IMG/VR virus record: IMGVR_UViG_2711768056_000005
Length of the DNA: 64,000 nucleotides
Reading direction: 5' to 3' (one strand)
DNA from: a virus
Lineage: Duplodnaviria > Heunggongvirae > Uroviricota > Caudoviricetes
The notes under the pieces were generated by a model. That model worked only from the letters and a program-made list of their open reading frames with translations. It made no database searches and was not told the origin of the DNA. Shown here in pieces: positions 57,325 through 58,251 of the stretch. The position numbers and the translations under genes were made by a program. Every line of letters starts with the position of its first letter. The stretch's first letter is position 1.

Positions 57325-57399
57325 CCTCTCACTCCATTATTTAACGAATAAAAAAGCTGCGGTGCCGGGTGCCTCCCGGTGTCCTTTGGCTGGTTATCC

Positions 57400-58250
57400 A
57401 CCGTGGACGGGGAAACAAGGAGAAATGAATGGACTGATATAACCATTTCCCCGCGTGCGCTTAGCCGCATTCACCGCAACGGAAAGAGCATTCCTGGTGG
57501 ACCTGTAGATTGGGATATGAACCCGTTACAGGAGAATGCTCTTACCTGTTACGTGCTCCGTTTCGTGGAGCTAACGGCGGGTGATCAGACCGCACCAGAC
57601 TGGACTTATTTCAGCGTTATGCTCATGCCAGAGAATCAAACTGTGATGGTCGGTGCTGAACTCCGACACAGGGTTGTAGCAAGCCCCGCAAAGCGCGCAC
57701 TACTGTAGTTGCGGCACATCAGCCTGTGCATTCACCACAATGTTGAGAACACTGGTTGTCACGCTGCAACGCAACATTTATTCGTAGATTGGGATATGAC
57801 CCCGTTACGCCAGTGTTCTCAACGTTGTAGTGCCGGTTACGGTTCCGGCCAGGCCTCTTCCTCAACGGGGTGTTCTCCATACGGACTACCGTTTATTGGT
57901 CGTTCCTGCGGTTTATGTTGTGAAGCCAGATGCTTATCTTCTGGTTGCTTCAAAGAGCTGCACTTCATCACAACGGTAAGAGCACTCGATGCATTTAAGC
58001 CAAGCCCCATAAGGGAGAATGCCCTTACCTGTTGTGTTGTGATGACCGGTGCTGATCTCCGGCTTGCGGTTATTTCAGACTCTCACGGGCGTTTAATTGC
58101 CCCGCCGAACAGCTCTTTTCCGCAATAGCTGCAATGTCTTTCGCGCATCAGCCTGCGCATTCATCACAACGGTAAGGGTACTTCGTAGGGATTCGAACCC
58201 TCTGCCAAGCTCGGCGATCTCCGACGTCGCAAAATACCCTTACCTGTTGT
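57400..58250. repeat. ORF-free repeat-rich region with dispersed 15-25-bp motifs and long-range inverted repeats
   Basis: Motifs CCTTACCTGTTGTG (57541, 58023, 58236, 58678), TCATCACAACGGTAAG (57966, 58163), GATTGGGATATGANCCCGTTAC (57507, 57787), CATCAGCCTG(T/C)GCATTCA (57718, 58147); 18-bp inverted repeat 57738-57755 / 57809-57826. Confidence 0.6.
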
Positions 58251-58251
58251 G

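Follow-up and report, generated by a model that had tools for sequence, protein, structure and literature searches.

A tandem array of conserved RNA hairpins in the tRNA-ban region of P1-like phages, downstream of a tmRNA-related element

We analysed a 64,000-nt stretch of DNA from a P1-like phage (IMG/VR record IMGVR_UViG_2711768056_000005; hereafter the window), with attention to the interval 57325-58251, which is not protein-coding and lies inside the C1-controlled tRNA-ban transcription unit, where the original prediction had placed it. Along the minus strand the locus runs from dmt through the Pban promoter and dicF-like region, tRNA-Asn and tRNA-Thr to the interval, and continues with a 78-aa open reading frame (ORF), an SPFH gene, tRNA(CAU) and ban (Table 1); across it, RCS47 and the P1-like phage of the window are 99.7% identical. 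The interval carries four copies (units A to D) of a repeated 70-100-nt hairpin module on the minus strand, which we name LH. A fifth copy (unit E) and an element related to transfer-messenger RNA (tmRNA; 58869-58729) are found upstream, beyond the coordinates that the original prediction covered; the element had gone unseen there, and it gives the array its context.

The repeats described in the original prediction are confirmed, and the interpretation attached to them is partly supported. A repeat search recovered multi-copy motifs as direct-repeat families D1-D7, with 2-4 copies each, together with the long-range inverted pairs I1, I3 and I8, and the string CACAACAGGTAAGGG occurs three times in the window against 0.08 expected. 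The palindrome AGGGATTCGAACCCT, noted as T-arm-like, sits at 58187-58201 within the loop of unit A, and CCTTACCTGTTGTG ends at 58251, a single base from tRNA-Thr. No minus-strand ORF in the interval exceeds 71 aa, in keeping with the claim that no credible one exists. Structure prediction, which had been proposed as a check, gives -352.8 kcal/mol for the minus strand of 57340-58252 (z = -6.8 against shuffles) and -326.1 kcal/mol for the plus strand. Each LH unit consists of a constant stem of 18-23 bp (consensus CACAAC-A-GGUAAGAGCAUU … AGUGCUCUUUCC-GUUGUG), which carries a bulged A, a U.U mismatch and a U.G wobble, closed over a hypervariable insert. After the LH hairpin come GUGAAU, a small hairpin with the sequence GCGCAGGCUGAUGCGC or a variant of it, a spacer and a further hairpin whose loop has 9 nt (CCGGAGAUCAGCACCGG or CCAGAAGAUAAGCAUCUGG); YCACAAC then leads into the next unit. 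The small hairpin is a constant element after most LH units in many phages.

Table 1. Positions of the features discussed, in window coordinates.
Feature	Coordinates	Strand	Remarks
dmt	61343-59079	minus	
C1-controlled Pban promoter and operator	between dmt and tRNAs	minus	mapped from P1 annotation
dicF-like region with intrinsic terminator (58898-58879)	58875-58963	minus	P1 annotation; directly 5' of antisense segment
Antisense segment	58823-58869	minus	complementary to E. coli tmRNA nt 56-106
Tag frame	58778-58810	minus	GCA AAC GAU GAU CUG AUG AUG GUA GCG GCC UAA (ANDDLMMVAA*); UAAAU before it
H-type pseudoknot 3' of tag	58729-58763	minus	ACGGGG/CCCCGU, GUCG/CGAC; analogous to tmRNA pseudoknot PK2
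LH unit E	58608-58690	minus	directly 3' of tag module; insert with conserved UGUGAUUAA loop
tRNA-Asn(GUU)	58331-58406	minus	ARAGORN, Rfam
tRNA-Thr(UGU)	58253-58328	minus	ARAGORN, Rfam
LH unit A	58165-58251	minus	stem CACAAC-A-GGUAAGGGUAUUUUG / CGAAGUACCCUUACC-GUUGUG
Inverted pair I8	58171-58183/58232-58244		
Post-LH hairpin GCGCAGGCUGAUGCGC	58143-58158	minus	GAUGAAU before it
A-B spacer	58037-58142	minus	ends with 9-nt-loop hairpin CCGGAGAUCAGCACCGG (58062-58046), then UCAUCACAAC
LH unit B	57969-58036	minus	absent from P1 itself
B-C spacer	57833-57968	minus	includes hairpin CCAGAAGAUAAGCAUCUGG (57944-57926)
LH unit C	57733-57832	minus	23-bp stem; post-LH hairpin 57729-57714
Inverted pair I1	57733-57755/57810-57832		23-nt arms, 54-nt loop
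LH unit D	57475-57553	minus	
Inverted pair I3	57481-57493/57534-57546		
STnc100/PasD-like 3' domain	57345-57478	minus	closed by UGCGGUG...CACCGCA; contains CCGGG-AGGCA-CCCGG hairpin; ended by U-run 57355-57350 just before 78-aa ORF
upl (annotated in P1 and RCS47)	57379-57708	plus	109-aa ORF
plp (annotated in P1 and RCS47)	57709-58128	plus	139-aa ORF
78-aa membrane-protein ORF	57324-57088	minus	PHROG 1130
SPFH/Band-7 lipoprotein gene, 275 aa	within 56280-57324, after 78-aa ORF	minus	Pfam/PHROG searches
tRNA(CAU)	56177-56252		between SPFH gene and ban in minus-strand order

A search of all fetched loci by regular expression and pairing identified 106 LH units, 51 of them distinct, in 145 loci, with near-constant arms around unrelated inserts of ~25-170 nt. 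When pairs were counted on an alignment of 25 distinct units, 91.8% of the stem was found to be paired, compared with 32-51% in slid controls, and eleven stem pairs had changed on both sides (30 cells); none of 500 shuffles matched the observed paired fraction, the number of doubly changed cells or the covariation score. The outer part of the stem is constant and the inner part covaries (e.g. AAGAGCAUU/AGUGCUCUU versus AAGCUGCUU/AGGCAGCUU and AAUGACACUU/GAGUGUCAUU), and the irregularities are kept, namely the bulged A, the U.U mismatch (17 of the 25 units) and the U.G wobble (18 of the 25). All five units of the window fold 5-11 kcal/mol better as minus-strand than as plus-strand RNA. Since on the opposite strand the wobble would become a C.A mismatch, this preference and the wobble together indicate that RNA, and not DNA, is the selected form. 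The LH units are conserved RNA structures on the transcribed strand.

These observations bear directly on the possibility that the units act as DNA, as recombination or mobility sites resembling miniature inverted-repeat transposable elements (MITEs) or attC sites that move tRNA cassettes. The arms are indeed inverted repeats with a bulged base, units and tRNAs have been gained and lost at the arms (including a 196-nt deletion in P1, described below), and identical units occur in unrelated phages. However, the wobble pairs and the one-strand folding preference point to RNA, there are no target-site duplications, and the flanks (the post-LH hairpin and CACAAC) are themselves conserved. No integrase or transposase travels with the units, and their orientation is fixed relative to the tRNAs and the promoter. 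We therefore regard a role as DNA sites as improbable.

LH has no Rfam family, and units A to C have no match in that database. Rfam searches at E up to 10 for the region, and at gathering thresholds for 16 related loci, returned only tRNAs, C4/isrK elsewhere, and sub-threshold STnc100 and tmRNA. Two further RNA classes were considered and set aside: a hammerhead in the insert of one homologous locus (L100; CUGACGAG…GAAAC) has no support from Rfam, and the sole match to Y RNA (YrlA) overlaps real tRNAs.

The original prediction used the name upl for the 78-aa minus-strand ORF, whereas upl and plp of P1 (NC_005856) and RCS47 are both annotated on the plus strand, within the interval itself. If that annotation held, the interval would encode two proteins, Upl and Plp. 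Both ORFs exist, and upl matches PHROG families 7444 and 14500, though these were themselves built from P1-like annotations. Among homologous loci, however, variable sites fall at codon positions 1/2/3 in the proportions 8/15/15 for upl and 15/13/18 for plp, showing no codon-position bias, whereas the neighbouring genes used as controls display a strong third-position excess (7/2/78 for the SPFH gene and 48/34/139 for dmt). In relatives the two ORFs are interrupted by frameshifting indels of 1, 2 and 13 nt, and the 109-aa frame is open in only two of eight distinct full-length versions. Pfam has no family for either protein and PHROGs has none for plp, P1 plp overlaps trnT, and PGAP calls no gene in the interval across hundreds of P1-like plasmids. 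The sequence is accounted for instead by the covarying hairpins on the opposite strand. The protein-coding reading is largely refuted, and we give it almost no chance.

The original prediction had suggested that the interval might hold decayed tRNA genes, processed small RNAs or a deletion scar, and the first and last of these amount to saying that the units have no function of their own. There are real tRNA-like traces. The insert of unit A contains a D-arm-like hairpin and a T-arm-like hairpin (AGGGUUCGAAUCCCU), the latter a canonical T-arm with a UUCRANY loop beside the 3' arm (AGGG-UUCGAAU-CCCU), and T-arm-like hairpins are present in 4 of the 34 distinct inserts family-wide against 0.03 expected; real tRNA genes, moreover, stand at unit junctions of relatives. 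Within the window, though, such hairpins are confined to unit A, most inserts are featureless as tRNA, and neither ARAGORN nor Rfam at E up to 10 finds a tRNA cloverleaf in 57325-58251. The stems far exceed a 7-bp acceptor stem: that of unit A runs for ~23 bp, with only 27 nt between it and the T-arm, and this unit has no anticodon arm, no 7-bp acceptor stem and no CCA. Both conservation and covariation of the arms hold across unrelated phage families, as would not be expected of decay products or of a deletion scar. Decay as a general explanation is very doubtful, while processed small RNAs are plausible. A related candidate, in which the 9-nt-loop hairpin plus CCACCACAA would represent a degenerate T-arm, acceptor strand and CCA, was rejected for want of a conserved CCA (the window has CAUCACAAC and CUUCACAAC).

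Parts of the interval have matches in 224 phage records, and the matching DNA almost always carries no annotation. The contexts include the PL leader that separates the repressor gene from the first leftward gene in the lambdoid phages mEp460 and Stx2a_1447, the PL leader upstream of an N-like gene of the P22-like phage SPN9CC, the late leader from PR'/tR' to the holin gene (HK633), tRNA cassettes that have a promoter and stand between siphovirus tail genes (swi2, MK54, IME207) and the tRNA array of a FelixO1-like phage (Sf16). The orientation of the modules always follows that of local transcription, promoter and tRNAs. The similarities can be close: the A-B spacer shares 97-98% identity with the PL leaders of mEp460 and Stx2a_1447 and with the IME207 tRNA cassette, the insert of unit B (UCCCUUAUGGGGCUUGGCUUAAAUGCA) recurs in Klebsiella phage MK54 and in Sf16, and the hairpin CCAGAAGAUAAGCAUCUGG is common to the SPN9CC leader. 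The two phages that share the A-B spacer, mEp460 and Stx2a_1447, also carry a P1-type C4 antisense RNA and isrK upstream of an antirepressor gene (L007 5480-5668 and L008 5535-5723 in our locus numbering); this block is an immI-like module common to P1.

Module maps of P1-like relatives begin alike, with the antisense-plus-tag element described below, LH unit E and the tRNAs, and differ afterwards. P1 lacks unit B and the A-B spacer through an exact deletion of 196 nt, at which the 3' arm of unit A now joins the post-LH sequence that belongs to unit B, and SJ46 lacks unit C as well. In D6 and p88_0502-2 a tRNA-Ser is inserted directly after …CCACCACAAC and the last unit is different; a tRNA-Ser at this locus is found in P7 too, and tRNA-Tyr or tRNA-Arg in other relatives, at unit junctions. 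The suggestion that other P1-like genomes carry cargo at this site is borne out by these tRNA genes and by whole units that are present or absent. Units are exchanged along with tRNA genes between and within phage lineages, and the constant arms are likely the substrates of these exchanges. The tRNA-Ser(UGA) of phage-plasmid p009_B (L011 1093-1177) is scored by Rfam as tRNA-Sec at 47.1 against a gathering score of 47, and depositors of the D6 copy noted that tRNAscan-SE could not assign it. Beyond the array, tciA, tciB and tciC (TerB-like) of P1, P7, D6 and SJ46 are replaced here by the 78-aa ORF and the SPFH gene, whose product RCS47 and Ro157c2YLVW annotate as 'putative serine protease'.

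Alternatively, the 3' arm (UGCUCUUUCC) and the post-LH hairpin could form a nut- or rrn-like boxA-boxB antitermination signal that loads Nus factors and lets RNA polymerase transcribe through the untranslated array. The 3' arm holds the rrn boxA core UGCUCUUU (UGCUCUUAC in some units; lambda nutR has CGCUCUUAC); a hairpin follows 12 nt after this boxA-like string, the lambdoid copies sit exactly at the nutL position or in the late leader, and a long untranslated operon needs protection from Rho. However, the core is paired in a stable stem rather than conserved as a single-stranded boxA (GCUCUUUA), and it covaries with the 5' arm in 5-6 of the 25 units (columns 131-133; e.g. GCAGCUUUCC and GUGUCAUUUCC), which indicates selection on pairing and not on boxA identity. 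The SPN9CC copy has no boxA-like string, and we know of no N protein in P1. An antitermination signal of this type is unlikely.

The reading that we prefer, with a probability of roughly 0.5, is that the array forms the distal part of an untranslated, structured ban-operon transcript of ~1.5 kb (minus strand, ~58870-57345), in which a tandemly repeated RNA unit provides structural or processing cassettes; such cassettes of a noncoding operon are what the LH units most likely are. The long LH stems would keep ~1.5 kb of untranslated RNA folded and hence a poor substrate for Rho and exonucleases. They may also offer sites of RNase III or RNase E type, from which tRNAs and small RNAs would be released, including the STnc100/PasD-like RNA at the end of the array. 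With 18-23 bp, the LH stems match the length of double-stranded RNA, about 20 bp or more, that is expected of an RNase III processing stem. The constant arms would, in addition, supply homology for the gain and loss of units and tRNA genes. The terminal domain matches the Rfam family STnc100 (RF02076) at 37.8 bits (E = 7e-6), below the gathering score of 47, over model positions 31-147 of 206. At this same terminator end, a 34-nt stretch in a CRISPR array of E. coli 042 (NC_017626.1, 3138492-3138525) is 100% identical to window positions 57356-57389, and looks like a spacer against P1-like phages.

Several points weigh against a structural or processing role. In a CRISPR interference (CRISPRi) screen the annotated plp, upl and trnT were non-essential for P1 and gave no plaque defect, so that any function must be conditional. 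The P1 transcriptomics literature that we searched yielded no expression or processing data for the interval, and we infer cleavage by RNase III or RNase E, and protection from Rho, only from stem length and overall structure. The similarity of paralogous units could stem in part from recent duplication or gene conversion instead of selection. Finally, the sequence of the outer arms and of the post-LH hairpin is conserved across unrelated phages, which suggests a specific partner, protein or RNA, that cassettes of this kind do not name.

Upstream of the tRNA genes, the tmRNA-related element combines an antisense segment, a short reading frame and a pseudoknot (Table 1), and here and in hundreds of enterobacterial phages the LH unit is the 3' part of this tmRNA-related RNA, ahead of tRNA genes. 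Homologues were retrieved from at least 120 loci by a pattern scan of viral contigs, from which ~18 unrelated coding sequences picked up by the pattern (frames ANEQANET and similar) were excluded. In the cassettes of siphoviruses and FelixO1-like phages, a promoter-started RNA likewise carries a tmRNA-like tag (e.g. …AAAGAUAAAU GCA AAC GAA GAA AUG UAU CUG GCC GUA GCU UAA). The tag module is directly followed by LH, and of 114 tag-module records 70 contain one or more strict LH anchors. The frame opens with an Ala resume codon, has no start codon or Shine-Dalgarno sequence, and closes with a hydrophobic residue and two alanines before the stop. Tags of 10 residues starting with AN make up 114 of 132 instances (e.g. 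ANDDLMMVAA, ANDDVVLMAA, ANEEMYLAVA, ANDEQFLAVA and ANDNVFLAVA). Among 80 unique sequences the stop is always codon 11 (UAA in 74, UAG in 2 and UGA in 4) and UAAAU directly precedes the resume codon in 78; codon 10 is GCC, GCU or GCG, and synonymous variation is also seen at codons 3, 6, 7 and 9. A fixed stop, synonymous variation and the constant UAAAU are the signature of a translated tag without a start codon, and the comparison of sequences argues that the template is under selection at the level of amino acids. In E. coli tmRNA, positions A84, U85 and A86 ahead of the resume codon are important, and the A, U and A at -6, -5 and -4 of the phage element are their equivalents.

The tag stop codon lies in a hairpin loop. 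Stem 2 of the downstream pseudoknot is 96.6% paired, with 2-3 pair types per position, and this pseudoknot is supported by covariation, whereas an upstream one was not established; helices were counted by hand, RNAalifold having given no useful consensus on the tag modules because of the pseudoknot and misaligned 5' ends. The tmRNA_permuted model of Rfam aligns weakly to exactly the tag stretch. ARAGORN with tmRNA detection found no tRNA-like domain in 128 homologous loci, its one call reusing tRNA-Met, and we found no acceptor stem with G3.U70 and no 3' CCA; the third LH pair from the T-arm side is U.G and not G.U. The 5' end of the element abuts a promoter, a terminator or an LH arm. In the window, the strong terminator of the dicF-like region lies only ~10 nt ahead of the antisense segment and between Pban and the tRNAs and ban, which means that transcription from Pban must read through it; in Rosenbergiella and Erwinia prophages, as in lambdoid late leaders, a terminator also immediately precedes the element.

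The antisense segment faces nt 56-106 of E. coli tmRNA, that is the 3' half of pseudoknot 1 (PK1), the linker, the resume codon and tag codons 1-6. A blastn comparison with ssrA matched on the opposite strand, and RNAduplex energies of -45 to -49 kcal/mol for the element with tmRNA were reached by 0/30 to 0/60 shuffles. Smith-Waterman antisense scores were 16-24 against 9-10 ± 1.5 for dinucleotide shuffles of tmRNA (p ≤ 0.003 for each of five sequences tested; 0/1000 for L028 and L020), with sense-strand scores at background, and in L028 the complementarity reaches tmRNA nt 142. Host tag codons 3-6 (GAC GAA AAC UA) are the pairing partner of the most constant block, UAGUUUUCGUC; at the corresponding place the phage's own tag has GAU GAU CUG, so that the antisense targets the host RNA specifically. 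The antisense segment was also recovered by a genome scan whose pattern left it unconstrained, in the retrieved prophages of Rosenbergiella, Pantoea, Rouxiella and Pseudocitrobacter and, as a variant, of Erwinia. Matches to the element occur in 692 of 50,697 phage records and 350 of 5,426 complete E. coli genomes, almost always in unannotated DNA. Among the phages are HK620, Klebsiella siphoviruses, FelixO1-like phages, P1-like phages, ~73-kb Klebsiella phages and 143-158-kb Salmonella and Serratia phages (SenASZ3, Maynard, IME250). Some lambdoid late-leader cassettes, in L020 (~300-400) and L028 (~290-390), contain an extra tRNA-like three-way module whose T-arm (GCGGGUUCAAUUCCCG) equals that of E. 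coli tmRNA at 15 of 16 positions, with compensatory changes between loci; the L020 and L028 cassettes also show sense-strand similarities to tmRNA nt 264-310.

Pairing with tmRNA, a selected tag template and no acceptor domain make a hybrid, two-piece tmRNA the most economical bold reading, in which a phage RNA would hijack trans-translation by joining its own tag template to the alanyl tRNA-like domain of host tmRNA. The 5' segment would anneal to host tmRNA nt 56-106 (to 142 in some phages) and silence the host tag template, and the phage resume signal and 10-codon tag would thereby be positioned ~12 nt beyond the predicted duplex, a distance similar to the ~10 nt that separates the host resume codon from PK1. 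Rescued proteins would then receive a phage tag ending in …VAA, …MAA or …AVA and not in …LAA, and the LH units would serve as the body of the surrogate tmRNA, multiplied into an array in P1-like phages. We put this forward as a tentative proposal, possible rather than probable, and its main alternative would be plain antisense inhibition of trans-translation. A further variant would make LH the body domains of a surrogate tmRNA, or tRNA-like-domain decoys for SmpB or other tmRNA partners. LH lies directly after the tag module in most cassettes, the D and T hairpins of unit A make an elbow-like pair, and an ssrA of little more than a tRNA-like domain has a precedent in phage DS6A. Against it, the LH arms are not themselves antisense to tmRNA, a candidate that we rejected when RNAduplex energies equalled those of shuffles (z about 0), and tRNA-like inserts are a minority, with no G3.U70 and no CCA end. 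Such a role for LH is quite unlikely.

A correction of the P1 reference annotation follows: in all likelihood neither upl nor plp is a gene, and structured RNA occupies the interval. The LH hairpin is a module new to Rfam, common to temperate and virulent enterobacterial phages and always found in untranslated leaders or tRNA cassettes; the array represents a new family of structured-RNA modules within a known general kind, the phage leader or tRNA-operon RNA, and its context possibly reveals a new tmRNA-directed mechanism. Were the element to act on trans-translation, it would constitute a new phage route to the manipulation of ribosome rescue and degradation tagging, and would help to explain the small noncoding RNAs that travel with phage tRNA genes.

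Long stems are known to punctuate long transcripts in the rrn operons, where they flank rRNAs and tRNAs, and at the RNase III sites of T7 early RNA. The LH stems resemble these in being irregular, in spanning ~20 bp or more and in punctuating a tRNA-containing transcript, but the sequence of the LH arms is kept from phage to phage around variable inserts, and cleavage here is a prediction. In lambda nut and rrn boxA-boxB signals, as in LH, a boxA-like string and a hairpin stand ~12 nt apart, and LH is located in PL and late leaders of lambdoid phages; the LH string differs in being paired and in covarying with its partner. STnc100 and its relative PasD are Hfq-bound small RNAs of lambdoid prophages, with copies in E. 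coli and Salmonella. They share with the end of the array an untranslated phage or prophage leader near tRNA genes, and 57478-57358 aligns with STnc100 including a start formed by GGUGAAU plus a hairpin and the CCGGGAGGCACCCGG terminator, although the score is sub-threshold and the match is confined to the last unit of the array. The upstream element recalls a two-piece permuted tmRNA in its resume signal (UAAAU-GCA), 10-codon tag, stop in a hairpin loop and downstream pseudoknot; unlike tmRNA, it has no tRNA-like domain, and ~50 nt antisense to host tmRNA replace the 5' tRNA-like half. The literature that we searched contained no description of a tmRNA mimic or antisense in enterobacterial phages, though descriptions beyond it are possible. 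In a 2014 census of tmRNA, the only phages listed with ssrA are mycobacteriophages and Bacillus phage G, together with the gene of mycobacteriophage DS6A, which approximates to the tRNA-like domain alone; a molecule like the latter is a strong inhibitor of tmRNA and may act through titration of SmpB. Like DS6A ssrA, the element is a phage-borne partial tmRNA that may interfere with trans-translation, but where DS6A carries the tRNA-like half, the P1-like phages carry the mRNA-like half together with an antisense segment.

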